From an uncultured Gammaproteobacteria bacterium (lineage in GTDB: Bacteria; Patescibacteriota; Patescibacteriia; SG8-24), in NCBI GenBank assembly GCA_964407925.1, contig CAYOXM010000001.1, forward strand, positions 82,909-144,248: a stretch of DNA of 61,340 bases, in the 5' to 3' direction. Shown here piece after piece: positions 3,099 through 53,629 of the stretch. The notes beneath the pieces are model-generated. The model ran no database searches, was not told where the DNA came from, and saw nothing but the letters and a program-made list of their open reading frames with translations. Made by a program: the position numbers and the translations under genes. Position 1 is the stretch's first letter, and every line of letters begins with the position of its first letter.

Positions 3099-3179
3099 GT
3101 TGGCGTGATTATCAGAGGAAATATACCAACCAAACCCCCGCTCGGTCAAAGAGACGATTTCGTGCTACCATTGGGGCAT

Positions 3180-21861: not shown

Positions 21862-22233
21862 CTATGCTTCGAACAGTTTGACGACGTACGGCCAAAAAAT
21901 CAAGACGCCGATCAGGAACGCGCCGACCGAAGCCACGAGCACCGTACCGGCCATGATGTCCTTGATGTCCTCGACGTAATGGTGGATGCGCGGCTTGAGG
22001 ATGTCGACCATCCGCTCGAAGATGCTGTTGACCAATTCTAGCACGAGAACAAGCACAATCGCAAGCGTAAGCAAGGCCTTTTCCGGGGTCCGCAGGCCGA
22101 GGAGGAACATCAGCGCGACGACCGCCGCGGCGAGGCCAAGTTGGATGCGGAAATTAGGCTCCTCACGGGCGACCGTGACGATGCCCTTGGCCGCGTACCG
22201 AAAGCTTTTTCCGAGACGAGCGAGCTCGTTCAT
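21862..22233 (-). CDS. dgkA: Prokaryotic diacylglycerol/undecaprenol kinase family protein
   Basis: SFRYAAKGI...EPNFRIQ, ELVNSIFERMVD and IKDIMAGTVL. ATG 22233 within the 21862..22770 track ORF. Confidence 0.88.
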   Translation of the reverse strand: MNELARLGKSFRYAAKGIVTVAREEPNFRIQLGLAAAVVALMFLLGLRTPEKALLTLAIVLVLVLELVNSIFERMVDILKPRIHHYVEDIKDIMAGTVLVASVGAFLIGVLIFWPYVVKLFEA

Positions 22234-22244
22234 AGGGTTGAGCG

Positions 22245-22712
22245 CTAGAGGATGCCGGCGCGGATGAGAATGTCGTGCTGGAGCGCGAACATCGCCCTTT
22301 CCTGACGTAAGGTCTCGTGATCGTGCCCGAGGAGGTGCAGGACCCCGTGGACGACCATGAGGGCGAATTCCTCCCGTACGGTCCGGCCGATGCGCTTCGC
22401 CTGGCGGCGGACTTGGGGCAGGCTCACGAAGAGGTCCCCGATGTCGTTTGCGGCCTTTTCCTTGTCGGGCAGGACGAACCCGCGCCGCTCCTTCAGGCCG
22501 AAGGAAAGCACGTCCGTCGTGCGGTCTTTTCCGCGCCACTGGCGGTTCAGGGAACGCATCTTGGCATCGCCAACGACCGAAAGCGACATGGATGCCCCTC
22601 CCCTCCCTCCGCCCCGCGCATATGCGAGCGTGGCAAGCCGTCCAAGCTCGGCCTTGCCGACGCCGGCAGGGAGCCGCCCTTCGAACGTGATGGACACCAT
22701 ATGGTTCATCAT
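22245..22712 (-). CDS. ybeY: rRNA maturation RNase YbeY
   Basis: LNRQWRGKDRTTDVLSF, IGDLFVS and VHGVLHLLGHDH. Confidence 0.95.
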   Translation of the reverse strand: MMNHMVSITFEGRLPAGVGKAELGRLATLAYARGGGRGGASMSLSVVGDAKMRSLNRQWRGKDRTTDVLSFGLKERRGFVLPDKEKAANDIGDLFVSLPQVRRQAKRIGRTVREEFALMVVHGVLHLLGHDHETLRQERAMFALQHDILIRAGIL

Positions 22713-22789
22713 AGCCCAGGGATGACGGTTTGAAAACAAAGGAGGCTGTCCACATTGGAACAGCCTCCATTGCGTGTTTCCGTCAACGA

Positions 22790-23920
22790 TCAGTTTGCCT
22801 TGAGGCTCATGATCATCATCTGGAACGTGACTTTATACTGTATTTGGAGCTGTTTGCCGAGGTTATACGTGACGACGGCCACCTTGTCGCCACCGAGCGA
22901 GACGTACGCCGTAAACCGGTCAGGACTCAGGATAGCCTCGTATCCCTGCCGCGTCGGGTACGGCTCGACCTGCGAGCTCGTGACGCCTGGGGCCGAAGCA
23001 AGGAACCAGTCCATGAGGCTCTGCCCCGGAGCCTTCTCTTCCATGAGCACCTGGATGGATTCGCCAGTCGGCGCCTCGAAGTAGATTTCCTTCTTCTCGG
23101 CGTCGCCTTCGCGCACGTTCCACGACGCGGGCTGGAGGACGGCGTACTTCTGCGTCGCGTTCGTGTAGGTGGCGATCTTCGGATTGTCCTTGAGCGCGGA
23201 CGGCGCGGGTGTCGCGGGATCGTAGAGGTTCAACGCCTCGTTGAGATCGACGTACACGTCCTTGTCGGTATTGGGATCGTCGATCTTCGTCCCGAACACC
23301 TGCTGTTCCTCCTGGTCGGTCAGGCCGTCGCTGTCGGAATCGAGTCCCGGCGTCGGTTCCGGCGGCTTGCAATCAGCAACGCATGATTCGATCGTTTCGG
23401 TCGGCGCCTCGCACTTGTTGTCGCCGCAGACGGGCGGCGGCGGGCCGCAGTCGGCAGAACAGTTCTGCGGGGTCTCCTTCGGGCTCTCGCACCGGTCATC
23501 GCCGCAGACGGGCGGCGGCGGGCCGCAGTCGGATGCGCAGCTCGTCGCCGTTTCCTGCGGCGCCTCGCACTTGTTGTCGCCGCAGACGGGCGCGGGAGGC
23601 GCGGTGTTGACCGCGACCACGACGGGTTTCTTTTTCGGTACGAGGAAAAACGCCGCCGCGCCGCCGCCTCCGAGAAGGACGAGCGCGATGATGACGATGA
23701 GGAGGACCGGCTTCTTCTTTTTCTGCTGGCCGGGCGGAACCGCGCCGGGGGCCGGCGGCGGGCCTGCAGGAGTGACGCCCGTCTGAATGGGCATCTCCCG
23801 AACCCGCTTCTTGAGCGCGGCACCGTAAAACTTATCCGGTATGACGTGAATCACCGGCTCGTCTGCCGACGGCTGCTGCGTACCGGCTGGTTTTTCGAGT
23901 TCGTTCGGCGGAGTCGCCAT
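22790..23920 (-). CDS. Type II membrane protein: three Cys-rich repeats, TSP3-like Ca-binding loops, PsbP-like C-terminal domain
   Basis: TM VLLIVIIALVLLGGGGAAAFFLV; 3x PPVCGDxxCExPxETxxxCxxDC; DSDSDGLTDQEE and DTDKDVYVD-like loops; YTNATQKYAVLQPASW. Confidence 0.8.
   Translation of the reverse strand: MATPPNELEKPAGTQQPSADEPVIHVIPDKFYGAALKKRVREMPIQTGVTPAGPPPAPGAVPPGQQKKKKPVLLIVIIALVLLGGGGAAAFFLVPKKKPVVVAVNTAPPAPVCGDNKCEAPQETATSCASDCGPPPPVCGDDRCESPKETPQNCSADCGPPPPVCGDNKCEAPTETIESCVADCKPPEPTPGLDSDSDGLTDQEEQQVFGTKIDDPNTDKDVYVDLNEALNLYDPATPAPSALKDNPKIATYTNATQKYAVLQPASWNVREGDAEKKEIYFEAPTGESIQVLMEEKAPGQSLMDWFLASAPGVTSSQVEPYPTRQGYEAILSPDRFTAYVSLGGDKVAVVTYNLGKQLQIQYKVTFQMMIMSLKAN
23350..23600 (-). 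repeat. Three in-frame 78-bp tandem repeats (26-aa Cys-rich unit)
   Basis: Homologous GCAC..GT..TCGCCGCAGACGGGCG units start at 23411, 23489 and 23567 (period 78). Confidence 0.85.
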
Positions 23921-23952
23921 AACGTTTTCGCTGCGGGTGATTCAAGCGCCGC

Positions 23953-24576
23953 CTACGGCTGACCGGGGACGCCGAAGAGTTTGCCCGGACCCTTGGGATT
24001 GTATCCCCCTTTGACTTCGGCCCCGTCGAGGAAGGAGTCGCCGTCGGTGTCGGGATTCTTCGGGTCGGTCGCGTAAATGCGCACCTCGTCGCGGTCCGAC
24101 AACCCGTCGGCGTCGGTATCGTTCGCCTGAGGATTGGTTCCGAGCGTCGCTTCCTCGCTGTCCGTCAGGCCGTCACCGTCGTTATCGATCGGCTGAGCGA
24201 CGGGCTCGGGGGGCTGAACGGGCTCAGTGGGCTGCGGTGCGGGCGCAGGAGGTGCGACTGGCGGTTCGGGCGTCGGCGCAGGAGCGGGGGCAGGCTGAGC
24301 CGACGGCTGCGGTGCGGGGGCAGGAGCCGGTGCGGGCGCTGCGGCGTCGTTGGTATCGGGAACGACGGCAGGCGCTTCTTTCTTGCCGCCACGGGCGAAA
24401 AGGAAGTATCCGCCGCCGCCGAGGCCGAGGATGAAAACGATGATGATCAGCAAGAGGAGTTTGGACGGACCGCTGCGGGTCACCGGCTGCACGGGAGGAG
24501 TAATGACGCGCGTTTTGGGCGTGTCCTTATCCACGTCTGCAAAGATATCCACCGGCTCCTTTTTGTCGTCGAACAT
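23953..24576 (-). CDS. Membrane-anchored Pro-rich protein with TSP3-like DxDxDG repeats
   Basis: TM, PAPAP stalk, DNDGDGLTDSEE / DTDADGLSDRDE / DTDGDSFLDGAE. Confidence 0.85.
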   Translation of the reverse strand: MFDDKKEPVDIFADVDKDTPKTRVITPPVQPVTRSGPSKLLLLIIIVFILGLGGGGYFLFARGGKKEAPAVVPDTNDAAAPAPAPAPAPQPSAQPAPAPAPTPEPPVAPPAPAPQPTEPVQPPEPVAQPIDNDGDGLTDSEEATLGTNPQANDTDADGLSDRDEVRIYATDPKNPDTDGDSFLDGAEVKGGYNPKGPGKLFGVPGQP

Positions 24577-24692
24577 AAGGGGGAAGCGGTCGGTATTGAC
24601 TTTATTCAGTATAGCACGTTTTGACCCGCGCGCCTATCGCTCAGGAAGGGAAAAGGCCAGGCGTTGCCGCCCGGCCCCTTCGTCCGCGTCCA

Positions 24693-25349
24693 TCACGTTC
24701 CCGCGGCCAACGGATCGCGTTTCTGCTCGACTTCGTCGCCGTCATTGACACGATCGCCGTCGGAATCGACGCGGAGGGGGTCGGTTTTCAGGTCCTCGAC
24801 CTCGTCTCGGTCACTGAGACGATCACCGTCCGTATCGATCCTTGCCGGATCGGTCCCGAGTTCCTGCTCCTTTTCATCGGACAAACCGTCCTCGTCCTGA
24901 TCTGCCGGCTGATCGCCCTTGCTGATGATGACGTACTCGGCGAAGAGCTCGCTGCTCCCCTCCCTTTGCCTGGCGCGAATCTGTACGGTCCAGGACAAGG
25001 GATAGCCATGCTGCTTCTTTTCATCGTCCGTCAGGTCACGGACCATGCCTGCCGTCAGGCCGTTCGAAGACGATGCAGGCGTTGCCTGTGCGCCAGGAGT
25101 ATCGCCGCCGATGGTCGTCGCGGAGTAGTCAGACGGCGGCGGCAACGGAGGCAGCGGCGGTCCAGGCGGCGATGCCGGAGCGGAAACGGGGGCGCTCGGC
25201 GTACCGCCGTCAGCCACCGCGCCGTCATCGGCGCGCCGCCGAATGATGATGACGACCGTTACGATGACGACGACCAGAACGACCGCACCGATACCGATGC
25301 CGATGAACAACCGTTTATTGCCGCCGGATTCTTCTTCGTACCCGTCCAT
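24693..25349 (-). CDS. Membrane-anchored protein with TSP3-like DxDxDG repeats
   Basis: TM, Pro-rich linker, DQDEDGLSDEKE / DTDGDRLSDRDE / DSDGDRVNDGDE. Confidence 0.8.
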   Translation of the reverse strand: MDGYEEESGGNKRLFIGIGIGAVVLVVVIVTVVIIIRRRADDGAVADGGTPSAPVSAPASPPGPPLPPLPPPSDYSATTIGGDTPGAQATPASSSNGLTAGMVRDLTDDEKKQHGYPLSWTVQIRARQREGSSELFAEYVIISKGDQPADQDEDGLSDEKEQELGTDPARIDTDGDRLSDRDEVEDLKTDPLRVDSDGDRVNDGDEVEQKRDPLAAGT

Positions 25350-25358
25350 ACCCATTGA

Positions 25359-28300
25359 TCAAGGTTTACACGCGTTTCCCGGCCCCGGATCGATGCTGCT
25401 GCAATACGCGGGCGTATTCGGCGATAAGGGTGCACCGGGGTAAACGCAGTACGTGTACTTGCTGGGATTCCCGTTGCAATACGTCGGCCCGGAGACGTCC
25501 GGAACTGACCAGTAGGCGATGTATCGCTTGCCCGCAGCCGGCGTATTGTTCACGCCGCTGCCGCCGATCGGGTAGTACAGCACCGAGCAATCGTCGTGCC
25601 AGCTCTTCGCCGACAGGCCGTAATCGGGGAACCCGCTGCCTCCGCTCGTGTAGTCATACACGTAGTAGTCGTAACGTACGCCCGGCTTACGGTCGATCGT
25701 CATGGTTTCGATGCCGCCGGGGTTGAAGTACCCGCTGCTCGAACCGGTGTCGTCGACGTCGAGCACGTAGGAATACGGACCGTCCGTGATCTTCGCCTTC
25801 CAGTACGGCATGTTTCCGCCGCCTGCGCTGTAATACAGGTGTTTGGTCTTCGCGGCATCGCCGCCCTCCGATGTCACCATGTGGAAGTCCAAGTCGCGGC
25901 CGGCGCTCCATTTTATCGTCGTACGAACCTGGTTCGCCGCAGGCTTGATCGTCGTGTCAGCGAAGTCCTTCGTGCCCTGAATGCAGTTCGTGCCATACGC
26001 ATTGTTCAAGGGTACGGGCGACGTGTCGTTGCAGAGCGGGGTCGCACCACCGTCCTTGACCACCTTTGCCATCGGCGTCACGCCGTTGCATGGTGTCTTG
26101 TCGATGTCGCCGCTGAACGAGTAGGAGCCGTCTCCCGCAACGCCGGCCTCGGCCACGACCGTGGCGCCGCATATGATCTGCACTTTCGCGTTCGCGAGGC
26201 CGCCGCCGGTCTGCGGATCGATGATCTTGCCCGAGACGGCGATGCCTTCGTCATAGAGGCCGTCGCAATCGTTATCCTTTCCGTCGCATGACTCGACCGC
26301 CGCCGCGACGCTTACCGATTGCGGCGCGCCATTTTCGTCGGTGTATCCCTGCACGTACGCGCCGTGCGTATTGTAGTTCTTGTCGTCGCAGTCCGGCGGG
26401 ACCGGCACGCCGTCGTTGTCGTCGTCGGGGTCGCAAACGTCCTTGAGCGTCTTCGGGGTCAATTGCCCGCACCACGGCTTCGCACCCGCTTGGCAGGAAT
26501 CGTTTTCCCAATTGTTGTAGTCGGAGTTGTATTGCGGACAAACCTGCGAATCCTCGGCTGCGCACGTCCGCAGGCAGGTCTTGGCGTCGCAGACGGCGTC
26601 GCCGGTCCGCTTGCCGTAAGACCTGTGCTCGGGCTTGTTGCTCACGCAGATGTATTCGCCGGACAGGCCGAGACCGCCATCGCAGTCCTCGGGGCCCGAA
26701 GGGTTCGTCAGGCTGCTCTGGACGATGTTGTCGCCGCAGTAACCGCCAGATTTGACCGCGGTCTTGCAGGCGCTCGTGCAGTACGTGCACGTCAGGCCGT
26801 AGGCGGGGGTGCAGACCTTGTTGTTGTTCTTGCCCTCGTCGCACTCCTCGGCCGCGCCGGCATACACGAACCCGTCGCCGCACTTGGCAAGCTTGCACAT
26901 GATGCCTTTGGCCGGATCGATGATGCAGCCGTCCTTGTTGTTATCGTTGCCGTCATCGCACTCCTCGGCACCCTCTTTGACGCCGTTGCCGCAGGAACCG
27001 GGAACGGTGCACTTCCAATTCGTCCACGTACAGGCCTTGTTCGAACCCGTATTGTCCGCAGTCGTGGTCGGGTCGTTCGGACGGCACTCGCGCCGGTTCT
27101 TCTGCTGCGCCTCGGGACAGAATCCCATGCACTTCACGCCGACGCCGCAATCGATGTCCTTTTCGCAGCCCGTCTGCGCGGGATTGTCGCAGAAACCCTT
27201 GGCTTCCTGGAATCCGCCGTCACAAACCTCCGCGCCGCTCACCTGACCGTCGCCGCAGCGAGGACCGGCAGCCGTACAATCCCACGTGCACGACGAAGTA
27301 CCGACGCCCGCCTTGGTCGTGCCGCAGGCGGCGAAGCCGTCGATGCCGTTCTTCGGCGACCATGCGGGTACGGCGTCGAAGTAGTACTGACCGTTCAGAT
27401 CCTTGCAGTCGCAAGCCTCGCTCGGCTGTTTCTGGCCGTCGCCGCAGAAGAATCCCTTGCCGGTGCAGCTCGCGCCGCAATACCCGTACTTGCCGTTCAG
27501 CGGCCCGTCGTCGCACGTTTCGGGCGGCGATTGGATCACGCCGTCGCCGCACGAACCGCCCTCGCAGACGCCTGAGGCGGGCAGTTCCCACTTGCAGCTC
27601 CCGGTGCATTTCTGCGTCTGCATGCCCGCGCGGCCGCCGGCCGTCGTGCACTTGATCGCCTGAGCCTGTCCCGGTTCGCACTCTTCCGTCGCGGGATCGA
27701 CTTGGCCGTCGCCGCATACGCCGTTCTTGCCCACCTCGGTCCCCTTGCATTGCGGCGACACCGGGTTGACGCGGCCGATGAACACCCTGCCGTCCTTGTA
27801 GGTGCAGACGGCGCTGTCCACGACGCATTCAGGATCGGCCGCGCACGTCCCGACGCTCCGTTCGGGGCACGTGCCGCCAGACCACGACACGGCGTTGGCG
27901 TAATACTCGAAATCGTTGCGCAGCCGGAAGTTCGGGCCGGCCGTGTCCTGGAAGTACTGGTACTCGTACACGTGCGATCCGGACGGGCAGAGGTACGAAC
28001 GCTTGGCGTCGGACCAGCACGTCGTACCGTCGCGGTCGGTCGCCTTGCAGAAGCCGTGATCGTTCAACGGATCGACCGGTCCGCCGAAGCCGGCGGCGCT
28101 CCTCAACTGGCCGTTCCAGGACGGCCACGTGCTGTTCGACATCGTTACGATGTACGAACCGGCGTCGAGCCGCGGGTACGCCCCCGTCTCCTGCTTCTTC
28201 ATGACGAGCGCGCGGCGATAACCGTCGATTTGCGCCCAGCGGAGGACGTCGCGTACGAGCTTCGACTTCGGCGCGTCGCAATAGAAGCCGCCTCGGGCGA

Positions 28301-31300
28301 GCGAACCGTCGCCTTTCAGCATGAATTCGCCGGACTTGTCCTTCTTGCACGTGAGGTCATCGTTGCAACCGACGCTCATGCCGGCGTTCGGAACCGCGAC
28401 TCCGGCGCCGTCCTTGCATTGGCCGGACTCCAAATCGCACTTGTTTTCGCCATAACCGGGGACGAGCACTCCGGCGATGTTCACCTTGCAGTCGTCGTCG
28501 GTAATGCAGCGGACGGTCACGTCGTCGCTCCGCCGGCACACCAGCTGATCCTTCAGTTCTTCCTGATAGTTGAAGTCGACGTTCTGAATGATCTGATTGA
28601 AGATATTCGTCGTTTCCGCCGAGGCGCCGTCCGTGTAGGACATGATCGCCACGTTGGTGAAGAGCTTGCTGCTCACCTTGGAACCAGCGCTCACGTACGT
28701 GGTACGGCCGTCCTTGAGGGCCTCGTACCCGTCGGAAGTCGAGCGGACCGGATTGCCGCCGAAACCGCGCGATCGATACCAATCCATGATGTCGACGTGC
28801 TTCAAGTTCGTCGTCAGGCGGAGGCCGACGGCGTCTTTCGCCCATTTCGGATCTTTGGTGGCGTAGGTGAAGAGGTACTCCTTGATGATGTCCTTGCCGG
28901 GGTTGATGATGACCGGCTTCTCGTTGAAGTCGGGCAGCGAGGCGGGCAGCGCGTCGCCGGCCTGTTTCGCGCCATCGCGGCAATAGTAGAACTTCACCCT
29001 GGTTTCGGGATCGTAGAAGGGATACCAGATGGTGGAATTTGCCACGCAGTCGCTCTTCGCAGGCGACGGGTCCCACGGCAATACGCCGCCGGACAGCGAG
29101 CCGTTCGCCGGACAGAGACGGCGTGCGGGCCACGGGTTGTCGCAGAGGAAGACGGTCACGTCCGAGGTGCCCGAGAATACCTGCTCGTCGGCGTCCTTGC
29201 AGCTCGCGCCGGCGCAATCGCCGTCGACGGCGCAGACTTTTCCGGCCTTCGTTCCGCCGTCGCACAGCTTCGGCTTCACGTGTGCCGTAGCCTCGACGAC
29301 CGCTTCGCCGTTGTGGGCGACGTAGCCGACGGGAAGATCGGTCTTGACGCTGCCGCGGACGCGGACGTCGGCCGTGGCCTGCTGCTTCGCGCCGACGATA
29401 TCGGGATTCACGATGACGACGGAAGCCGTCTCCTTGGTCGACGCCGGCTGCGGGGTCCATTGCCAATCCCACTCATAGGGCGGCATCGAGGCGATCTGCT
29501 CGCCGCTGGACGCCTTGGCGTGGGCGACGACGCCCTGATGGTCGTCCGGCGGATTGGTGGTCCACAGCAGGATCGAAGACGGGATGACCTCGACGTGGTC
29601 GATCGTGCAGATGTCCTGCTTGGTGCGGAAATACGTCACGACGCCCTTGGACACGTCGGTTGCGGAGAGCAGCGAGACGCCTTGGACGTTCTTGACGTCC
29701 TTCTTGACCAAGAGGCGGACCCACGTGTTCGCGGGAAGGGCAGCGGTCGGCGCGATGGTCGTCTCGGTCACGCCGGACGACTCGATGGAATCGACCGTGA
29801 TCGGCACGCTGCAGTACGTGTTGGTCACCGGCGGACCGGCGGCGCTGATGTCGCGGAAGAAGAGGCCTCGGAAGAAGTCGATGGTACCGCGAATGACGCG
29901 CTGGATGAACGATCCGGGGGCGGACGAGGGGGCGACGACGTTGTCGGCAAGCACCTTCACGGTCCCTGCCGGGCAGGTCGCATTGGGATCGGCCGAGAAG
30001 TCGGTTCCGAGAAGGACGTTCTGCGCGATCGAGCCGGCGTCCATGAGCTGGTCGAAGCTCACGGTGTAGGCGGCATTCCGGCAGATGTCGGGCGGCCACG
30101 GCGGTTTGACGGCCGTGATCTTCGGCCGCGGCGCGCAGCACCCGTTCGTGGCACAGGCCAAGCTCGCGCCATACGTTTCGCAGAAGGCGTCCTGCTGATT
30201 CTCGGGTTTGGTCTTGCAAGTGCAGGAAAGCGCGACCTTCGCGATGCCCGCATCATCGGTCGCGATGCCCGTAGTCGTTGCACGGACTTGGGAGGTGCTG
30301 CCGGCGGCGGTCTTCGCGTCGAAACCGACCTGCGGCTGCGCGACCGTGACCTGATACGAGTCGATTTTCGCGTCCGGCGGCTGCTCGCAAAGCGCCTGTT
30401 CGCCCTTGCCTGCGGGCGGCGGGAAGCCGTTATCGCCGCAGAACGAGGCATCGGTATAGAAAGCGGACGACCCCTTGAGCAGGCAGCTCGTTGAGCAGAA
30501 TTCTGAGGCGGCGGGATCAGTCTCGCAGGCGGCGTCTTCGCCGAGTTCGGCGATGCCGTTACCGCAGCATGGCGCGGCGATGCCCGCACCGCAGGCCTTC
30601 GTCCCCTTGCGGAGACATGTCGCGGCATCGCATCCGTTCGCCGTGGGCGTCTCGCCGGGATCGGCGATGCCGTTCGGACCGAGCTCGCAGTAGGCGTCTT
30701 CGCCGGGTTCATCCTTGCCGTTGCCGCAGAAATTCAGGCAGGCCTGACCGGGAGTCGCGCCCTTGCACGACGGGAGCGTGCCCTCCCTCACGCACTCCTT
30801 GTTGCAACCGTCGCCGTCGGAGGTGTTGCCGTCGTCGCATGACTCGCCGTCGCTCACGAAGCCGTCGCCGCAGACCGAACCCTTCGCCGATGACGTGCCG
30901 GTGAAGATGCAACCGATGTCATCGGCATACCCGTCGACATGGTCTCCGGGCTTCTTGCAGCCTGGGGCGAAAGTGTCGGCGCACGTGCCGCCGGGGCAGT
31001 CGCCGTTCGTCGTGCACGACTTCTCGTCCTTCGTGCCGCCGTCGCACCGCTGCACCATGTCGCACGATTCGCCGGCGTTCACGGTCTTGTTGCCGCACGT
31101 GGGGGCGATGGTGCCGACGAGGAGGCACTTGGCGCTGCAGACGGCGGGCGTGATCGCGATGTCACACTCTTCGTACTGCGCGTCGAGAACGCCGTTGCCG
31201 CATTGCGGAATCACGTTTTGCGAACCGCGAAGGAGGCATTGCGCGGTGCACTGCTGCTTCGGCACGGGGTTGGTGTTGACGAGCGTCGCTACGGGAGACG

Positions 31301-34300
31301 GCGAAACAGGCGTCACGGGGTTGCCATCGATAAAGCCGCCGAGCACGTGGTTCGGATTATCGAACGTCCACTGCCAATCGTAATCGTCCGCATCGAGCAG
31401 CTGACCGTTCTTGCTGCATTCGTCCGGAGAGCCGAAGGGACTCACCGTGAGGTCCTTGCGCTCACCGACATAGAAAAGGGTCGAAACCGACGGCTTCACT
31501 TCGGCACGGCTCGCGAGACATGCCGTCGGATCGTCCTTGGTGCGGAATTTCCAGCTGTAGTACAGGCCGTCATTGAGGCCGCCGAGCGGGACGCTGCTGC
31601 GGCTGTAGACGCCCTCGAGGACGGACGGCGTGGCGGGATTATCGCTCTTCACGCGGACGAGGTAGAACGTGCTCGGGAGAAGGTTCTTGCCCGTCTGCTC
31701 CTTGAGCGTGAAGTGCTTGAACAGCTTGATGTCCGGCGTCCCGAGAATGGTCTCGTCGGGCGGCATGACTTCGGCCGTCCAGACCTGCCCCCCGAGATCG
31801 AGGAAGGGCGGCGTGCAAGAAGCGTTGCGGCAGCGGAGAAGCTCGATGTTGCCCGCCGCGGTCAGGCTGTTCTCGTTCATCGGAACGTTGAACTTGGCCT
31901 CGATTGCGGCGTTGATGCACGCCTCCGTGCATCCCGCGACCGGCGTCATTTCGATGATGCGCGGCTCGGCGAACTTCACGGTGATGTCCGACTCCCCCTT
32001 CTTCGTGATCGGCGTCCCGATGGCGGACATGGTCGCCTCAAGCGGCGTCGACGGCGTTTCGATTTTCGCCTTGACCTTCTGCACGCACTCGCTTTCGGGC
32101 GGGCTGTACGGAGGAGGCAGGAGGGCGAGGTACACGTTGTTCGCGTACCAAACGATCGAGTACACGCCGGGGGTGCACTGCAGGCTATTGCAGTTCACGC
32201 CGGTCGGCCTCGCGGCATATCCGACGCCGAACTCGTCCTGGTCGATCGTGTCCTTCGGCGGATCGACGAACACCTTTGAGAGCGCGCACGGCTGACCGCT
32301 CGTCTGTACGCGGAACTTGTAAACGTAATCGCCGCCCGGTTTGCGGTCGAGGTCGCCGTCGAGGAAGCGGCCACCGGGGCCGGGCTCCCTGAATCCGAGG
32401 TTGCTGCCGGGATTCGAAACCAGGCGTACCTGATACCACATGCCGTCCTTGAGGAAGGTCGACGTCGGACCTGCGCCGTTGTAATTGAACGGCGGCGTGA
32501 ACGTGATGACTTTGCAAGACTCGTTCGTCGGCCCGTCGCTGCAGTCGGTCTTCGAGAAAATCAGCGGGCTCACGAGGACGTCGCAAGAGCCGGGGGCGGC
32601 GTCGTTACCGCACTCGCGGACCTCGACCGAAGCGGAGAGCGAACCGAGATCGGTCTGCAGTTCCGTGCTGAACTGAATGCGGATTTCGGCATTCTTGCAG
32701 GCATCGGTCGACTCCTTGTACGGCGAAGGACTCTGCAGGACGGCGGGGGCGGGATCAAGTTTGCAAATCGCATTTTCCACGACGACCGGGAGCGACGGCA
32801 GGATGCTCGTGCTGAAAAGCCAGCCGTAGGCGCTGTTCCTGACCGGAGGGGCGCAGAAATTCGGACCGCCCTGACAAGAGCCGTTCGCGCAGCATTCGGT
32901 ACCGTTGGGGCAAGACGCGCCGGCATCGTTGCAGTCCCCCACCGTGAACGGCACGGCATTCGAACTCAGCTGGTTGTTGGCGACGACGTACACCGGACCC
33001 GATGCGGGCCACGTGGACTTGTTCGGGAAATCGCCGGCGACGATCGTGTCGATCTTCGCGTCCGACCACGTGCTGTATGCGCCATCGCCCGTCGTGACGG
33101 TCGTGGGCGCGCACACGCCATCGGAGGCGGGGGCACACTGGTCGCCGATCGCGGCGCTGCAGGCCGCCTTGGTATTGATGCACTTGGTGACGTTGCTCTT
33201 GAAAAATTCGACGCTATACCGCGGAGCCGAACCCGGACCGGCGTTTCCCGACGAACCGAAGCCTTCGCCGGTGATGGACACGGCCTTACCCGGACGACCG
33301 TTGTCCGGCTCGATGGCGCAAAGTCCCGGACGCAACGGCTCGTTCGTCACCCGGAAAAGGATGTCGTCGTTGCTGTATTTTGCCGGCGGAGCGGTGACGA
33401 TCTGCACCTTATGCGAGACGCCAGGGAGCGCGCCGAAGTTGAGCGGCAAGCCGCCCTGATACTCGCTCGGGACCTTCACGATGACGTAGTTGTCCTTCCA
33501 ATTGTTGGCGCAAATCGGATCGTCTCCGAGGCCGATATCGCCGGAGCACGAACCCTGCGGGCAGTCGGCATCCTTGGTGCAGGCGGTGCCGTTCTTCGTA
33601 CCGCCGACGCAATGCAGCGCGCCGCCCGTATTTTTGAACCGTACCGTCCCCTTGAAACCGCCGAAACCGGTACCGATGACGGTGACGTAGGAACCGACCG
33701 GACCGTGATCGGGAACGACCTCGAGAATCTTCGGGAGTCCTGCGGCAGAGGGCGGCGCTACGAGGAAGTTGACCGTGTTCGAATCCGTGCCGTTAACGAC
33801 GACTTTCACCGGGTAGGTCTTCTCCGGCACGGGAGGCACGATTGCCTTCACCGACGCTGCCGTCCATCCGCCCGACGCCACGGTCGCGGCATAGGAACCG
33901 AGAGCGACCGTACTAGAGCCGATCACGTCGCCAAAACCCGACCCGTGGATGAGGAAATCGTTGCCTGGCGTTCCCTGATCGGGTTCCACGTAACAAATGC
34001 CCGGAAGAACGGTGGCGTTCACCGTGAACGTCCCGTTGTTGCCGGGTTTCGCGCCAAAATCGTCGTCGGTCTGGTCTGAAGGACCGCCGGCGGTAGTAAG
34101 TTTCAACGGGCCGGTGACGGCGTTCGCGGGAACGGCGACGACGACCTCGTCGTTCTTCCATGCGCCGGGCGCGCACGCCGCCGCGACGACGTCGTCGGAA
34201 GGATCGGGTCCGCCGAGGAACGTGACAGAACCGGGGTTGTCCCCGAGGAAACGGCCCTTGATCGTGATGAGCGAACCGGGACCGGCAGCCTTCGGGTTGA

Positions 34301-35735
34301 AATCGTCGATGACCGGCCTTTCTTCGCATTTCTTCGTCAGGGGGTTGCAATATCCCGAAGAGCAGTCGCTGTTCGATGAGCAGCTCGAGCCGTTGCATGA
34401 CCCGCACGCGCCACCGCAGTCGACGCCCGTCTCCCCTTCCGCGTCGTCCTTAACAGCGTTGCAGCAGTGCGGGGGGGTTACGGTGAAGGTCGCCTGCGCC
34501 GTAGTGCTCGATTGGGGAACGCCGTCCTGCGCCACCGCGGAAATCGTGTGGCTTCCGGGGGTCATGGTGGCGATATCGACGCTCAGCAGCGAGCTGTCGA
34601 CGATGAACGGCTTGTCCAAATTGGCGTTGGCGATGCTGCCCGGCGACGGATTAAGCTCGGCATCGAGCAGCTTGTCCGTGCCGCCGTCGACGAGGAAGTC
34701 GACGACGCCGACGAGGAAGTCGTCGTCGGCAACGGCATGGACGGAGGCGGGATTCACGCCGCAATATGCCGGCGACGACGTGGGCGAATCCACGCTGACT
34801 GTCGGCGGTGCGACGTCACGGAGCGAGTTGAACGCGATCGCACGATCGCAGAGATCGGCCTGGGCCTGCGGCGAAGAGATGTCGCCCGGGGGGCCCGGCG
34901 GCAGGAAGGGGCAGAGCAGGGTCCTCCCGTTCACGTCGGTGATGGCGCCGCCTTTCGCGCGAACGACGTACCAGAAATCACCCTCGAAATCGGTCGGGTT
35001 GTCGCCCGGCGTCCCACTCGGCTTGAAGAGCACCTTGTTCGACTGGACGGTGAGCGTGCCCGCGACCGTCGTGGTGCAGGAGGCTGACGCGAACGGCTGC
35101 GCAGCGCCGCCGCCATCGAGACGCGCGTTGCATTTCTTCACCTCGACATTCGTCGGCGTGATGCTGACGCCGGAAACCGCGGTGTTGAACGTTATGGTGA
35201 TGCCGTAGTTCTTCGGCCAGCCGGCGGAGCTCGGACCGGGACCGAACGGCGTGATGCCGCCGATCTTGAATCCGCCGAACCCTCCTCCCCCGAAACCGCC
35301 GCTGCATACCTGACCGGGAGGACAGTTACCGCTGCCGCTGCCGCCGAGACCGTCATCGCCGGTGATCGCGCGGAAGACGAACTGCGTGATGGCGAATGCG
35401 GACATGATGATGACGAGGCCGATCGTCCCGTTGATCATCCACTTCTTCGCGGTGCTGATTTTTTCCTCGTTGCCGCCCGCGGTCATCCACAGGAATCCCG
35501 CGTACAGCATGATGCCGACGGCGATGATGCCGAGGAATCCGAGGAAGTAGCTGATGATGCGGGAAATCGTCGTCCGGATGTCGGTGGTCGTGAGGCCGAT
35601 CGCCGTGGCATAGCCGAGCCCGAGGTCGGGACCGCCCGTGCCCTGCGCCATCGCCGGCAAGGCGACGAGAACGCTCAAGAAAGCGGCAGCGGCCGCTTTC
35701 TTCATTCTGGAGAAGAGTGTGGCGAGGATGGGCAT
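25359..35735 (-). CDS. Giant (3458 aa) Cys-rich surface protein: VirB2/TrbC-like pilin N-terminus, Ig-like (SbsA/Big), IPT/TIG x3, Cys-rich CGNG/CGDG repeats, PsbP-like, pilin-head-like, metal-binding DCDD..CDGKDNDCDG motif, YfaP/DUF2135-like C-terminus
   Basis: DIRTTISRIISYFLGFLGIIAV...YAGFLWMTAGGNEEKISTAKKWMINGTIGLVII; GPGSLITIKGRF, GPVGSYVTVIGTGF; many CGxG..E.CD repeats; IKWSAGRDLDFH...LDVDD...ETMTI. Start may be ATG 35705. Confidence 0.88.
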   Translation of the reverse strand: MPILATLFSRMKKAAAAAFLSVLVALPAMAQGTGGPDLGLGYATAIGLTTTDIRTTISRIISYFLGFLGIIAVGIMLYAGFLWMTAGGNEEKISTAKKWMINGTIGLVIIMSAFAITQFVFRAITGDDGLGGSGSGNCPPGQVCSGGFGGGGFGGFKIGGITPFGPGPSSAGWPKNYGITITFNTAVSGVSITPTNVEVKKCNARLDGGGAAQPFASASCTTTVAGTLTVQSNKVLFKPSGTPGDNPTDFEGDFWYVVRAKGGAITDVNGRTLLCPFLPPGPPGDISSPQAQADLCDRAIAFNSLRDVAPPTVSVDSPTSSPAYCGVNPASVHAVADDDFLVGVVDFLVDGGTDKLLDAELNPSPGSIANANLDKPFIVDSSLLSVDIATMTPGSHTISAVAQDGVPQSSTTAQATFTVTPPHCCNAVKDDAEGETGVDCGGACGSCNGSSCSSNSDCSSGYCNPLTKKCEERPVIDDFNPKAAGPGSLITIKGRFLGDNPGSVTFLGGPDPSDDVVAAACAPGAWKNDEVVVAVPANAVTGPLKLTTAGGPSDQTDDDFGAKPGNNGTFTVNATVLPGICYVEPDQGTPGNDFLIHGSGFGDVIGSSTVALGSYAATVASGGWTAASVKAIVPPVPEKTYPVKVVVNGTDSNTVNFLVAPPSAAGLPKILEVVPDHGPVGSYVTVIGTGFGGFKGTVRFKNTGGALHCVGGTKNGTACTKDADCPQGSCSGDIGLGDDPICANNWKDNYVIVKVPSEYQGGLPLNFGALPGVSHKVQIVTAPPAKYSNDDILFRVTNEPLRPGLCAIEPDNGRPGKAVSITGEGFGSSGNAGPGSAPRYSVEFFKSNVTKCINTKAACSAAIGDQCAPASDGVCAPTTVTTGDGAYSTWSDAKIDTIVAGDFPNKSTWPASGPVYVVANNQLSSNAVPFTVGDCNDAGASCPNGTECCANGSCQGGPNFCAPPVRNSAYGWLFSTSILPSLPVVVENAICKLDPAPAVLQSPSPYKESTDACKNAEIRIQFSTELQTDLGSLSASVEVRECGNDAAPGSCDVLVSPLIFSKTDCSDGPTNESCKVITFTPPFNYNGAGPTSTFLKDGMWYQVRLVSNPGSNLGFREPGPGGRFLDGDLDRKPGGDYVYKFRVQTSGQPCALSKVFVDPPKDTIDQDEFGVGYAARPTGVNCNSLQCTPGVYSIVWYANNVYLALLPPPYSPPESECVQKVKAKIETPSTPLEATMSAIGTPITKKGESDITVKFAEPRIIEMTPVAGCTEACINAAIEAKFNVPMNENSLTAAGNIELLRCRNASCTPPFLDLGGQVWTAEVMPPDETILGTPDIKLFKHFTLKEQTGKNLLPSTFYLVRVKSDNPATPSVLEGVYSRSSVPLGGLNDGLYYSWKFRTKDDPTACLASRAEVKPSVSTLFYVGERKDLTVSPFGSPDECSKNGQLLDADDYDWQWTFDNPNHVLGGFIDGNPVTPVSPSPVATLVNTNPVPKQQCTAQCLLRGSQNVIPQCGNGVLDAQYEECDIAITPAVCSAKCLLVGTIAPTCGNKTVNAGESCDMVQRCDGGTKDEKSCTTNGDCPGGTCADTFAPGCKKPGDHVDGYADDIGCIFTGTSSAKGSVCGDGFVSDGESCDDGNTSDGDGCNKECVREGTLPSCKGATPGQACLNFCGNGKDEPGEDAYCELGPNGIADPGETPTANGCDAATCLRKGTKACGAGIAAPCCGNGIAELGEDAACETDPAASEFCSTSCLLKGSSAFYTDASFCGDNGFPPPAGKGEQALCEQPPDAKIDSYQVTVAQPQVGFDAKTAAGSTSQVRATTTGIATDDAGIAKVALSCTCKTKPENQQDAFCETYGASLACATNGCCAPRPKITAVKPPWPPDICRNAAYTVSFDQLMDAGSIAQNVLLGTDFSADPNATCPAGTVKVLADNVVAPSSAPGSFIQRVIRGTIDFFRGLFFRDISAAGPPVTNTYCSVPITVDSIESSGVTETTIAPTAALPANTWVRLLVKKDVKNVQGVSLLSATDVSKGVVTYFRTKQDICTIDHVEVIPSSILLWTTNPPDDHQGVVAHAKASSGEQIASMPPYEWDWQWTPQPASTKETASVVIVNPDIVGAKQQATADVRVRGSVKTDLPVGYVAHNGEAVVEATAHVKPKLCDGGTKAGKVCAVDGDCAGASCKDADEQVFSGTSDVTVFLCDNPWPARRLCPANGSLSGGVLPWDPSPAKSDCVANSTIWYPFYDPETRVKFYYCRDGAKQAGDALPASLPDFNEKPVIINPGKDIIKEYLFTYATKDPKWAKDAVGLRLTTNLKHVDIMDWYRSRGFGGNPVRSTSDGYEALKDGRTTYVSAGSKVSSKLFTNVAIMSYTDGASAETTNIFNQIIQNVDFNYQEELKDQLVCRRSDDVTVRCITDDDCKVNIAGVLVPGYGENKCDLESGQCKDGAGVAVPNAGMSVGCNDDLTCKKDKSGEFMLKGDGSLARGGFYCDAPKSKLVRDVLRWAQIDGYRRALVMKKQETGAYPRLDAGSYIVTMSNSTWPSWNGQLRSAAGFGGPVDPLNDHGFCKATDRDGTTCWSDAKRSYLCPSGSHVYEYQYFQDTAGPNFRLRNDFEYYANAVSWSGGTCPERSVGTCAADPECVVDSAVCTYKDGRVFIGRVNPVSPQCKGTEVGKNGVCGDGQVDPATEECEPGQAQAIKCTTAGGRAGMQTQKCTGSCKWELPASGVCEGGSCGDGVIQSPPETCDDGPLNGKYGYCGASCTGKGFFCGDGQKQPSEACDCKDLNGQYYFDAVPAWSPKNGIDGFAACGTTKAGVGTSSCTWDCTAAGPRCGDGQVSGAEVCDGGFQEAKGFCDNPAQTGCEKDIDCGVGVKCMGFCPEAQQKNRRECRPNDPTTTADNTGSNKACTWTNWKCTVPGSCGNGVKEGAEECDDGNDNNKDGCIIDPAKGIMCKLAKCGDGFVYAGAAEECDEGKNNNKVCTPAYGLTCTYCTSACKTAVKSGGYCGDNIVQSSLTNPSGPEDCDGGLGLSGEYICVSNKPEHRSYGKRTGDAVCDAKTCLRTCAAEDSQVCPQYNSDYNNWENDSCQAGAKPWCGQLTPKTLKDVCDPDDDNDGVPVPPDCDDKNYNTHGAYVQGYTDENGAPQSVSVAAAVESCDGKDNDCDGLYDEGIAVSGKIIDPQTGGGLANAKVQIICGATVVAEAGVAGDGSYSFSGDIDKTPCNGVTPMAKVVKDGGATPLCNDTSPVPLNNAYGTNCIQGTKDFADTTIKPAANQVRTTIKWSAGRDLDFHMVTSEGGDAAKTKHLYYSAGGGNMPYWKAKITDGPYSYVLDVDDTGSSSGYFNPGGIETMTIDRKPGVRYDYYVYDYTSGGSGFPDYGLSAKSWHDDCSVLYYPIGGSGVNNTPAAGKRYIAYWSVPDVSGPTYCNGNPSKYTYCVYPGAPLSPNTPAYCSSIDPGPGNACKP

Positions 35736-35744
35736 GGTCGGTAA

Positions 35745-38075
35745 TTACGGCGATACGGGCGTGCACTTTCCGAGGAACTGCCCGTCATCCTCGCCGTACT
35801 TATTGCAACAGGAATTCGGGTTCGGTCCGGCGGCGGCGGAGCAGTCCTGGAAACGGCTGGGGTAGAAGCAATTCTGCTTCGTGTCCTTCAATTTCGCGCG
35901 CAATATCGGAAGGTACGCAGGCACGTTCTCGGGAGCCGCAGCCACGTCATCTTCAGTATACCCGAGATCGTCAGCGGTGAAGAAGGGGTATGCGGGATGC
36001 AGGATCGACATGCGCGTCACGTATCCTGTGCCGGAGGGGTTCGGGACGAGCATGGAACCCGGGGCGAGGCTGTCGGAATCCTGTCCTCCGATGTAGAAAC
36101 CCGCGGGCTCGAGCCGGTTGCAGGGGCATTTCACGCCGGGCTGACACGGCGTCTCCCGATCCGTCTTCTCGCACTCATAGGAACGGAGCACGACGGTGGA
36201 GTACGGATCCTTGTAGGCACCGGGCGGCGGCAGTTCGCCGTAAGCTCCCGTACGCATGGAACCGACGCTCATGACCTTGCTCCACGTCGCCGAGATGGGC
36301 AGCGTCGTCGGTATCTTCGACGGACCCGTCGGCCATGCTTCGTTCGAGGGCGGTGGCGCGAACGCCGGCGGATCGATCGATTTCACTTGAGGAACGGTCA
36401 GGTCGACGTTTGATCCGACGTTATACACCCAGAATGAGGAGTCGCTGACCGTCGAGAGGTCCGCCGGCGGATCGTTCACATAGTACAGCTGGACCTTTCC
36501 TCCGGGCTGCGCGCCCTGCGGCTCGATTTGCGGACCTTCGGTCGTGCCGTTGCCGTTGCCGTCGAGCGAATTGCCGACCATATCCTCGACGCCGTTATCG
36601 AGCGCGGCGGCGGGCGGTTCGGGCTCCTTCGGCGGCGTGAGATCGACGGTCGCCGCTTTGGAGGTGACGGTGAGTTTCACGTTCTTCGGGAGGCAGTAGA
36701 CCGTTTCGCCGCAGGAATTCTCGGTGATGCCCTCGCAGGGGGCGGCAGGCATGAACTCCGCAGTGCGGTAGCGGTTGCCGAGCACGAGCGTGCCGTCGAC
36801 CGTGCCGCCGGGGAAGACGCAGTTCGGCGCAACGACGCCCGGAAGGCATTCGGCCTTCACCTCGATGTTGTTGAATCCCCCGCCCGTGCCGATGATGCCG
36901 CTTGCGGTCGTCGGGTCCACCGCTTCGTCGAAATAAATCTGGAGCAGCTGATTCCGGTCCAAGACGCTGTCGTCGGGAGTTCCCGGAATCGGCGTCGTGG
37001 TCGGAATGACCGCGATGATCTTCGGCGGCGTCACGTCGATCGTCGTGTTGGTCGTGAACGACCAGTAGTACCCGCCGTCGACGGACAGGGACCCCTGGAA
37101 CGCGTCCTCAATCTCGGGCGTGCCGTCGTCCTTTTCCGCCCAAACCTTGAGGCCGTTCTCTCCGCCCCGGATGGCAACGCGGTAATTGATGTCCGTCACC
37201 GGGCTGCCCAGATAAGTGAGCGGCTTGATGGTAATCGTCTGCATCTGCCCGCCCTTGTACGGCATCACGACGGCGGTCACCGCGGCCTTCGGCGCGGGCG
37301 TGATGACGGCGCCCGAATCGGGATAACGGTTGTTGAACTGCTCGTCGGCGGTTCCCGAGCCGGGCGTACCGAGCGACTCGTTGGGGATGATCTTGACGTT
37401 GTCGGTATTCAATTCGAGCGGCGTGTTCGCCGTGACCGGAGTGCCGCCGCTGCACGGCGGCTTTGACGGGCAAATCTCGTCATCGGCCTTGTCGTACGTC
37501 CCCTTGTCGTCGTAATTCTTGAGGATGCTCGAAAGCACGAGCGGCTTTTTGAACGTGATGGCGATCTTGGTGTTCCGGGGCACGTCAATCTGCCCCGGTT
37601 CCGGATAATGATACTCGATGATGCCGTTGCCGAGCGCCGTACCGCGATTGCCGGTGAAAAGCGAACCGAGCTGCGTGCCGGAACCGCTGCCGCTGCCGCC
37701 CAATCCCTCGCCAGTGAGGGCGCGGAACAGGAAAGCGACGATGGCGTACGCGGACGTGATGATGACGAGGCCGATGACCGCGTTGATCATTATCTTCTTG
37801 CCCTTCTCGACCTTCTCCGCGCTGCCCGCGGCGGTCATGATGGTGTACCCGGCGTACATCATGAGACACACCGCGATGAAGCCGAGCAGTCCGAGGAAGT
37901 ACCGGATGATGCGGCTGACGAACGTCCGGATGTCCGTCGTCGTGAGCCCCGTCGTCGTCAGGTACTGAAGGCCGGTGTCGACCGCATGCGCGGCTTTCGG
38001 CGTAAGCGCGAAAACGGCGAACAAAAGAAAGGCCGCGAGCACGATGTGCACGGCCTTTCCCCTCTTTCTGTTCAC
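35745..38075 (-). CDS. VirB2/TrbC-like pilin-domain protein with tandem Ig-like (SbsA-type) domains
   Basis: TTTDIRTFVSRIIRYFLGLLG...YAGYTIMTAAGSAEKVEKGKKIMINAVIGLVII; VPRNTKIAITF, DVTPPKII and RNQLLQIYFDEAVDP. GTG 38075 has an AGGAGG RBS. Confidence 0.87.
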   Translation of the reverse strand: MNRKRGKAVHIVLAAFLLFAVFALTPKAAHAVDTGLQYLTTTGLTTTDIRTFVSRIIRYFLGLLGFIAVCLMMYAGYTIMTAAGSAEKVEKGKKIMINAVIGLVIITSAYAIVAFLFRALTGEGLGGSGSGSGTQLGSLFTGNRGTALGNGIIEYHYPEPGQIDVPRNTKIAITFKKPLVLSSILKNYDDKGTYDKADDEICPSKPPCSGGTPVTANTPLELNTDNVKIIPNESLGTPGSGTADEQFNNRYPDSGAVITPAPKAAVTAVVMPYKGGQMQTITIKPLTYLGSPVTDINYRVAIRGGENGLKVWAEKDDGTPEIEDAFQGSLSVDGGYYWSFTTNTTIDVTPPKIIAVIPTTTPIPGTPDDSVLDRNQLLQIYFDEAVDPTTASGIIGTGGGFNNIEVKAECLPGVVAPNCVFPGGTVDGTLVLGNRYRTAEFMPAAPCEGITENSCGETVYCLPKNVKLTVTSKAATVDLTPPKEPEPPAAALDNGVEDMVGNSLDGNGNGTTEGPQIEPQGAQPGGKVQLYYVNDPPADLSTVSDSSFWVYNVGSNVDLTVPQVKSIDPPAFAPPPSNEAWPTGPSKIPTTLPISATWSKVMSVGSMRTGAYGELPPPGAYKDPYSTVVLRSYECEKTDRETPCQPGVKCPCNRLEPAGFYIGGQDSDSLAPGSMLVPNPSGTGYVTRMSILHPAYPFFTADDLGYTEDDVAAAPENVPAYLPILRAKLKDTKQNCFYPSRFQDCSAAAGPNPNSCCNKYGEDDGQFLGKCTPVSP

Positions 38076-38134
38076 GCACCCTCCTAGCATGGAAGAAGTG
38101 TTTGATGAACGAACCTCCGTTCTTCGGTTTTTAC

Positions 38135-53596: not shown

Positions 53597-53629
53597 GAAA
53601 AGCGCCCCATCATCGGTGGGGCGCTTTTC
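53597..53629. terminator. Bidirectional terminator
   Basis: GAAAAGCGCCCCA-TCATCGG-TGGGGCGCTTTTC. Confidence 0.8.

Follow-up and report, generated by a model that had tools for sequence, protein, structure and literature searches.

VirB2-like pilin modules joined to very large surface proteins in a conserved operon of the Patescibacteria class ABY1

A 61,340-nucleotide stretch of DNA from an uncultured bacterium (assembly GCA_964407925.1, contig CAYOXM010000001.1, positions 82,909 to 144,248), referred to here in its full length as the window, carries on its minus strand an operon of five genes, designated A to E. The first two encode proteins that begin with a module of the pilin family of type IV secretion systems (T4SS) and continue into very large extracellular regions. 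Judged from sequence and gene order, the operon is a vertically inherited surface-protein locus found across the class ABY1 of the Patescibacteria, and the organisms that carry it are tiny and probably host-dependent. The reading that we favor, with chances of being right or wrong that we regard as about equal, is that A and B are modular VirB2-like pilins that show adhesive cargo and work with a T4SS encoded elsewhere in the genome. A and B may thus explain how ABY1 bacteria grip other cells.

The five open reading frames (ORFs) occupy positions 22790–38090 and are co-oriented and closely spaced, with intergenic gaps for A/B, B/C, C/D, and D/E of 9, 3, 116, and 32 nt, an arrangement already recognized in an earlier interpretation of the same letters (the sequence-only reading). 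A third-codon GC of 0.74–0.83 marks the frames of A to E as coding, in contrast to the many overlapping shadow ORFs of this DNA, in which the G+C content of the window is 63%. Gene A (35745..38090) encodes 781 amino acids. An alternative GTG start at 38075, the right-hand coordinate adopted by the sequence-only reading, yields the 776-amino acid gene call found in the databases (P0101). Gene B (25359..35735) encodes a giant protein of 3458 amino acids.

Comparison of the N-terminal modules with protein families provides the principal evidence for their pilin ancestry. Judged by its profile scores, the module is a member of the T4SS_pilin family: A reaches 36.6 bits and B 37.5 bits (39.9 for the isolated B segment) against the gathering score of 26.6 for Pfam PF18895. 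Both narrowly miss the gathering score of PF04956 (TrbC/VirB2; 27.9 bits), with 26.1 bits for A and 23.1 bits for B (27.1 for the isolated segment), in matches that span nearly the whole profile (E 5e-6 to 1e-5). A further sub-threshold match of the N-termini is to the Mbov_0395 pilin-like conjugal transfer family of NCBIfam. The proposal that VirB2-like modules are fused to giant extracellular proteins is thus borne out by PF18895 for both A and B; of the families suggested along with it, TIG, Big_5, and DUF4215 were recovered together with T4SS_pilin, while TrbC remained just below its cut-off. The A and B N-termini are clearly homologous by sequence (56% identity over 111 residues, E 3e-31), but their earlier description as near-identical is not sustained, DNA identity being 66%. 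Recent gene conversion between the two modules was rejected on the same ground, as a DNA identity of only 66% is too low for it.

The closest relatives of these modules are small proteins. For the N-domain, the 100 closest homologs are all stand-alone pilins with 106–240 amino acids, for example from Buchananbacteria and Falkowbacteria, with identities of 46–59% at best, and several of them carry PF04956. A hidden Markov model (HMM) built from 100 stand-alone pilins matches A and B with E values of 1e-36 and 4e-38 and finds nothing else in a six-frame translation of the window, so that no small pilin is present there. The family counts 85,827 cluster representatives at E ≤1e-3, and with one general profile of it about 143 bits are reached both by giant B-like proteins (P0343, P0355) and by stand-alone pilins of about 140 amino acids. 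One feature of membership, that of being a small single-domain protein (~100–240 amino acids), is absent in A (781 amino acids) and B (3458 amino acids). Comparison with the VirB2 proteins of better known systems lends support that falls short of proof: alignment by hhalign with eight annotated MPF_T VirB2/TrbC plasmid proteins kept both helices and the loop between them in register and gave a probability of 65% and an E value of 6e-5 over 61 columns, values to which transmembrane (TM) composition bias may contribute.

The pattern of conservation within the module is also that of a pilin. Column entropies of the A and B modules follow those of the stand-alone pilins, which in these bacteria have about 130 amino acids, with Spearman coefficients of 0.84 (A) and 0.80 (B), the loop and the exposed N-terminal segment included, and the consensus LGLLGII..LYAGFLWMTAgG.eeK..kAKk...NA.IGLvIiLSA.AI is common to all. 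Invariant Gly, Leu, and Ile columns are shared, and the polar loop motif M-T-A-x-G-N/D-E-E-K..A-K-K is conserved. Because an inert anchor would have no need of a conserved loop and exposed N-terminal segment, the hairpin appears to be pilin-like still. The modules also vary together. Within one genome, the A and B modules have a similarity of 0.504; GC-matched pairs drawn from different genomes reach 0.418 (Wilcoxon p 1e-11), and A compared with B from the three nearest relatives reaches 0.453 (p 1e-8). The higher value within genomes suggests shared partners or co-assembly, with the caveat that the genomes are not phylogenetically independent.

In both proteins the hydropathy profile shows a signal-peptide-like segment followed by two hydrophobic helices. 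In A, the predicted Sec signal peptide (residues 1–36; 37983..38090) has its hydrophobic segment at 13–31 and a helix at 13–29 in the AlphaFold2 (AF2) model, and we propose cleavage at AHA↓V. The pilin module that follows (residues 37–126; 37713..37982) consists of an exposed GL-TTTDIRT segment, helix 1, the loop TAAGSAEKVEKGKK, and helix 2. An AF2 model of the N-domain by itself shows a leader helix at 8–28 and then a confident hairpin of helices 54–86 and 91–126, with a predicted local distance difference test (pLDDT) value of about 90. A flexible Gly/Ser-rich linker, GEGLGGSGSGSG (residues 127–150; 37641..37712), with pLDDT below 50 at residues 129–143, leads to the ectodomain. In B, the signal peptide (residues 1–30), for which cleavage at AMA↓Q is proposed, and the pilin module (residues 31–125) together span 35361..35735, as delimited from Pfam and HMM matches, the A-B alignment, and hydropathy; its loop, MTAGGNEEKISTAKK, agrees with the consensus of the stand-alone pilins. 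In B, too, the module is connected to the ectodomain by a flexible linker.

Many other members of the family are "polypilins," in which short linkers connect from 2 to about 8 or more pilin hairpins behind a single signal peptide, as in P0225 (233 amino acids, 2 modules), P0221 (552 amino acids, 6 matched stretches), and P0262 (1775 amino acids, 17 matched stretches). Their topology is self-consistent in that each hairpin begins and ends outside the cell, and their sequences show that the module can be covalently extended at its C-terminus.

The ectodomain of A (residues 151–781; 35748..37640) is a compact, strongly conserved tandem array of immunoglobulin (Ig)-like β-sandwich domains. The AF2 model of the full protein (pLDDT 87, predicted template modeling score 0.80) places an all-β ectodomain, with pLDDT mostly above 90, after the disordered Gly/Ser linker at 129–143. 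Big_5 falls below the Pfam cut-off in A, and the Ig-like assignment comes from AF2 and Foldseek, in which LdtMt2, through its Ig-like domains, gave the best match of the ectodomain (E 6.5e-5), antibody and cadherin folds came next, and no enzyme fold was among the matches. Cysteines number 18 in A (2.3%) and 174 in B (5.0%).

The conserved ectodomain of B (residues 126–3000; 26736..35360) contains TIG (58.4 bits, best match at residues 583–656) and Big_5 (56.5 bits) Ig-like domains, Cys-rich DUF4215/myxo_disulf repeats at about residues 1500–1800 and 2650–3000, and MopE-like motifs. Large conserved stretches have no annotation; Pfam searches with 500-residue slices of B added no domain, and phmmer against sequences of the Protein Data Bank (PDB) matched the TIG domain only. 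Residues 1–3000 are conserved in 69 related loci with 25–41% identity, while the last ~450 residues are not covered by B-like proteins elsewhere. A search of 5.8 billion proteins with the final 458 residues (3001–3458; 25362..26735) returned one genuine homolog, the other matches being to the MopE-type motif. Because B is rooted at its N-terminus, this variable region would form the membrane-distal tip, which is by sequence comparison lineage-specific, fast-evolving, and hypervariable. With Ig-like domains in A, TIG and Big_5 domains in B, and a variable tip, the predicted cargo of the two proteins looks adhesive.

Full-length A has more than 100 orthologs of 740–860 amino acids with 37–84% identity, beyond which lies a further tier at about 30%, and at least 553 genomes encode a relative of A in a scan of one genome per GTDB species. 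PF18895 is found in 117 of the 120 listed A homologs, several of which are named "pilin" by NCBI, consistent with the expectation of the sequence-only reading that such genes are annotated in genomes of the candidate phyla radiation (CPR). Its placement of the organism in the CPR is likewise supported, as carriers of A with informative titles are Uhrbacteria, Magasanikbacteria, Falkowbacteria, or "Parcubacteria." Some 40 or more records of metagenome-assembled genomes (e.g., L005, L014, L017, and L018) are titled "uncultured Gammaproteobacteria bacterium"; these show the Patescibacteria-type synteny lepB-hisS-yqeY-A-B, and the label looks like a placeholder or an error.

Gene order was compared in 83 related loci, for which the fetched DNA was of limited reach. 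In about 77 of these loci, the ORF immediately downstream of the A-like one is B-like and has a pilin module of its own; complete B-like ORFs encode approximately 1,700–3,450 amino acids, and many others run into the end of the locus at about 3,450 amino acids or beyond. The recurring order is lepB-hisS-(rpsU)-yqeY-A-B-D-E-(ybeY)-dgkA-ftsA-ftsZ, with pth-der-lytR on the opposite strand. Among upstream neighbors, HisS was found in 68 loci, LepB in 65, and YqeY in 64; downstream, a D-like ORF follows B in 14 loci and an E-like ORF follows D in 9, and D, E, DgkA, and FtsA appear wherever the DNA extends past B. Because this synteny is fixed across loci whose GC content ranges from 32% to 70%, the cluster is an old, vertically inherited core locus rather than a mobile element or an artefact; a mobile-element origin was rejected in view of the conserved housekeeping synteny. 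The sequence-only reading had missed this status of the cluster, a syntenic chromosomal core locus throughout the class. In four genomes, A is separated from B by an intact small pilin gene (L024 8735–9247, L043 11914–12321, L046 11731–12129, and L061 7065–7439). A small pilin in the same position is seemingly frameshifted in L055 (11787–12130), and in L079 one lies just upstream of A (3224–3640).

The broader context is provided by recent surveys of these bacteria. Quinonero-Coronel et al. (2025) reported VirB4 in 2,417 of 3,035 Patescibacteria assemblies, with T4SSs related to the monoderm MPF_FATA type, and VirB2-like pilins (PF04956 and PF18895 profiles) in 1,948 of the VirB4-positive assemblies, adjoining virB4 in 1,135 (PMC12102498). 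In that dataset, pilin arrays comprise 2–11 genes, T4SS loci of ABY1 sit with comF, recG, and radA, and no PrgB-like adhesin was detected (PMC12102498). Six carriers of the A-B pair occur in Table S1 of the same study (PMC12102498); all six belong to class ABY1 and five have VirB4, the exception being a partial assembly of 619 kb. Wang et al. (2023) showed that Southlakia epibionticum cannot grow epibiotically without its T4SS cluster, predicted pilins included (PMC10633639), and a 2025 review credits these systems with only the "potential to elaborate conjugative pili" (PMC12857230). The papers searched or read contain no mention of pilin modules fused to large proteins, although the genes are already annotated as "pilin" in databases, and no cultured representative of ABY1 was listed in those read. 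No VirB2, TrbC, or TraA pilin bearing a large passenger is known to us from nature, and full-text searches found none.

The most likely mechanism can be outlined from these features. Signal peptidase I would cleave the leaders of A and B, and the hairpin would insert with both ends outside the cell, so that the passenger is exported. The pilin module would then engage the partners of the stand-alone pilins, that is, a monoderm-type (MPF_FATA-like) T4SS encoded elsewhere in the genome. A and B would be displayed in few copies, at the tip of a VirB2-like fiber as its first-in subunits or docked at its base, and would grip another cell through the variable tip of B, while the TSP3 proteins C, D, and E would brace the assembly in a calcium-dependent manner. 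In the solved T-pilus, the termini of VirB2 face outward and its loop faces the lumen (10.1101/2022.09.25.509369), so that a C-terminal passenger would project from such a fiber. A and B may either enter a filament or remain resident in the membrane.

A number of observations weigh against this proposal. To our knowledge, a VirB2-type filament has yet been seen in no Patescibacterium, so that the function of the family is itself inferred. The fold of the hairpin does not discriminate between a pilin and something else: a Foldseek search of the model against the PDB gave nothing significant, the two-helix hairpin matching unrelated coiled structures at E ~1, and PDB sequences searched with a profile of the pilin alignment yielded no pilin but only spurious TM matches to P-type ATPases. 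The best pilin found by Foldseek was the conjugation pilus of Aeropyrum pernix (8dfu), in second rank at E 1.5. Modeling of the N-domain, by which the sequence-only reading would have been refuted, gives a confident hairpin and does not decide between a pilin and an ordinary anchor; because Foldseek gave no significant match, the pilin assignment draws upon sequence profiles and not upon fold. The excess similarity of A and B within genomes could also come from old gene conversion.

Other difficulties point to a specific alternative, to which we assign a smaller but still considerable probability, namely that the pilin-derived hairpin never leaves the membrane and that A and B are membrane-rooted spikes or an S-layer-like canopy, braced by the TSP3 proteins and without a link to a T4SS. 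The locus is chromosomal and class-wide, between rpsU-yqeY and ybeY-dgkA-ftsA-ftsZ, and such housekeeping and cell-division neighbors fit a constitutive envelope protein at least as well. No T4SS gene lies within 10 kb of the module in the 83 related loci or in the window. The ectodomain of A, with many invariant columns across 82 orthologs, is unusually conserved for an adhesin, and together with the first 3,000 residues of B it is conserved in the manner of structural proteins. Big_5 Ig-like domains, moreover, are found in S-layer proteins. A passenger of 3,300 residues would also be too bulky for a regular pilus subunit; because it could not be fitted onto every packed subunit, steric considerations leave it only a place at low copy or at the tip. 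The separation from virB4 is less telling than it may seem: the two nearest small-pilin arrays that were examined are likewise surrounded by housekeeping genes and have no VirB4 within 10 kb, so that in ABY1 a pilin role is not contradicted by remoteness from virB4. Further, a static anchor does not readily explain why the hairpin retains the full conservation pattern of the stand-alone pilins, loop and exposed N-terminal segment included, why the locus of some genomes includes small pilin genes, why the A and B modules co-vary within genomes, or why 117 of the 120 listed homologs have kept PF18895 rather than another anchor.

That the resemblance to pilins is fortuitous, with a signal peptide and an ordinary two-TM anchor that match Pfam through hydrophobic composition, appears very unlikely. 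The absence of a significant pilin in the Foldseek and solved-structure profile searches, the TrbC score under the Pfam cut-off, and the known susceptibility of TM profile comparisons to composition bias would be in keeping with such an explanation, but the PF18895 cut-off is exceeded by about 10 bits in both A and B, identity to stand-alone pilins is 46–59%, the custom HMM gives E values of 1e-36 to 4e-38 with shared invariant Gly, Leu, and Ile columns, and it is a polar loop motif that is conserved and not hydrophobic stretches alone. Mis-assembly or sequencing errors that fused a small pilin with a downstream gene might also be imagined in a metagenome assembly, where giant ORFs in high-GC DNA can be spurious. 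This is effectively refuted by uninterrupted ORFs of the same architecture in independent assemblies with GC contents from 32% to 70%, by the third-codon GC of 0.82–0.83, and by the folding of A in AF2 at a pLDDT of 87. Scarcely any weight can be given to assignment of A and B to a different pilus system, whether a type IV pilus (Tad or Pil) or a sortase-assembled pilus, even though type IV pili do occur in Patescibacteria and modular pilins with large C-terminal modules are known in type IV pili. The class III (prepilin peptidase) signal motif, G↓(F/M)-(T/S)-L-x-E, is absent from the first 60 residues; no C-terminus has an LPxTG sorting signal, the single internal LPASG in B not being terminal; and the module is a two-helix hairpin rather than a single N-terminal helix. 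The type IV pilin and sortase readings were rejected on these grounds.

A bolder form of the modular-pilin proposal would make A and B the first natural modular VirB2-type pilins, nucleating and capping a T4SS pilus in a monoderm in place of the missing VirB5 or PrgB, with the 450-residue tip of B setting the host cell. We put this forward only tentatively and consider it more probably wrong than right. If A and B are indeed modular tip pilins, the T4SS pilins of Patescibacteria, essential in Saccharibacteria, would partly serve adhesion, and the polypilins would be covalently linked filament segments.

The three genes downstream of B each encode a protein with one hydrophobic TM-like segment and DxDxDG motifs, in line with the prior description of three TM-anchored proteins with such loops. 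C (24693..25355; 220 amino acids) has its TM-like segment at residues 20–38, a Pro-rich stalk, and TSP3 calcium-binding repeats, and is a paralog of D (23953..24576; 207 amino acids), with 32% identity over 173 residues. D has the same plan with a Pro/Ala stalk, and is the conserved partner downstream of B. Both pass TSP3_bac (PF18884; cut-off 25 bits), C with 43.4 and D with 54.0 bits, whereas E fails with 13.7. The similarity of C and D to CglD and MtsD of Myxococcus is limited to weak partial matches in the TSP3 repeats. E (22790..23920; 376 amino acids) has three Cys-rich CGDxxCExPxET..C..DC repeats, a single DxDxDG loop, and a C-terminal domain of about 150 residues, and gave no match in Pfam or, by phmmer, in the PDB.

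Directly after E, a consensus scan found a terminator-like hairpin (22741..22768, minus strand) of 11 pairs, 7 of them G-C, followed by TTTGTTTT, which by its sequence is the probable end of the operon ahead of ybeY. A 302-residue "DagK" ORF (21862–22770, minus strand) matches DAGK_prokar only in its last ~100 residues, and its 5′ part overlaps, in another frame, the real ybeY gene (22245–22739, minus strand). It was rejected as a sixth gene of the cluster because it is an over-extended ORF. As the true ybeY sits inside it, the cluster lies between rpsU-yqeY and ybeY-dgkA, a pairing that we take to be shared with Bacillus genomes.

Pfam scans of the plausible ORFs in the window found housekeeping genes only, with no VirB4, VirD4, VirB6, PilB, or PilC; the reported absence of VirB4/VirD4 and PilB/PilC is thus confirmed. 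The genes include those for an HtrA-like protease, a P-type ATPase, and an extracytoplasmic function (ECF) sigma factor; smpB, infC, rplT, pyk, and nrdR; ftsZ, ftsA, dgkA, ybeY, yqeY, rpsU, hisS, and lepB; and a LytR-family gene, der, pth, topA, relA/spoT, and parB/parA. The lepB gene for signal peptidase I (40403–41032, minus strand) lies on the same strand, three to four genes upstream of A and B, and LepB was found in 65 of the 83 loci; its presence may be coincidental housekeeping synteny, or it may provide the enzyme that processes A and B. The ECF-type sigma factor gene (7220–7732, minus strand) lies directly upstream of one for a DUF5667 protein (5976–7223, minus strand), the two being likely a sigma/anti-sigma pair. 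A third giant ORF (53629–61340, minus strand) of at least 2,569 amino acids continues over the right edge of the window, beyond which its N-terminus lies. Its sequence abounds in Thr, Gly, Ala, Ser, and Asn and has fiber-like repeats; near the C-terminus is a Peptidase_S74 domain (the intramolecular chaperone of endosialidases and tail fibers) with a Pro-rich tail behind it, and homology to A or B is absent. The exact sequence of gene A (35745–38090) is present in a sand metagenome run. It is partly present (0.55 of sampled words) in a bioreactor metagenome, so that close relatives occur in engineered water systems, and none of the RNA runs searched for the locus contains it.

The potential importance of the A-B pair follows from the prevalence of the systems to which it may belong. 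About 80% of Patescibacteria assemblies have a T4SS and VirB2-like pilins, without which the one tractable species cannot grow epibiotically, and no T4SS adhesin has so far been found in the phylum. For an uncultured class, the A-B pair is a concrete and testable candidate for the contact apparatus that is missing, and the fast-evolving tip of B could be a marker of host specificity. A and B would be the first natural VirB2-family pilins with a large passenger known to us, and would bear upon both pilus assembly and surface display. Even if the hairpin is only an anchor, the locus would still define a core envelope structure of ABY1 beside the cell-division genes.

Among known systems, the stand-alone pilins of Patescibacteria (PMC12102498, PMC10633639) are like A and B in PF18895, signal peptide, hairpin, loop motif, column conservation, and tandem genes, and their published small arrays are often located away from virB4, as is the A-B locus. 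They differ in being single-domain proteins of ~100–240 amino acids, where the A and B modules bear passengers of 650 and 3,300 residues, and in lacking the fixed housekeeping locus that the A-B pair occupies across a whole class. The VirB2, TrbC, and TraA pilins of diderms, which form the T-pilus and F-pilus, are helical hairpins processed by removal of a signal peptide, as predicted for A and B; relative to these, A and B have a TrbC score just under the cut-off, a longer loop, and a monoderm host, and no adjacent virB3, virB4, or virB5; virB3, virB4, and virB6 are absent from the window and from the 83 related loci.

The VirB5 tip protein and the PrgB and TraN adhesins share with A and B the proposed role in contact between a T4SS and its target cell, without any relation in sequence. 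Giant Ig-repeat adhesins of the SiiE and LapA types and TSP3 envelope proteins such as CglD, GltJ, and MtsD of Myxococcus resemble the cluster in their Ig-like domains, calcium loops, size, and surface location; unlike A and B, these proteins have no pilin hairpin and leave the cell by type I secretion or lipoprotein export. The modular and minor type IV pilins, including GspK, CofB/TcpB, and PilB/PilC of Streptococcus sanguinis, have bulky C-terminal modules, prime assembly, and sit at the tip. Their pilin fold and machinery are unrelated to those of VirB2-like proteins, and the class III signal peptide is absent in A and B; the logic of the design, a pilin module for incorporation joined to a functional module for adhesion whose bulk places it, at low copy, at the tip, is the same. 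Although such defining features are absent, it is these modular and minor type IV pilins that A and B, by analogy of design, most resemble.

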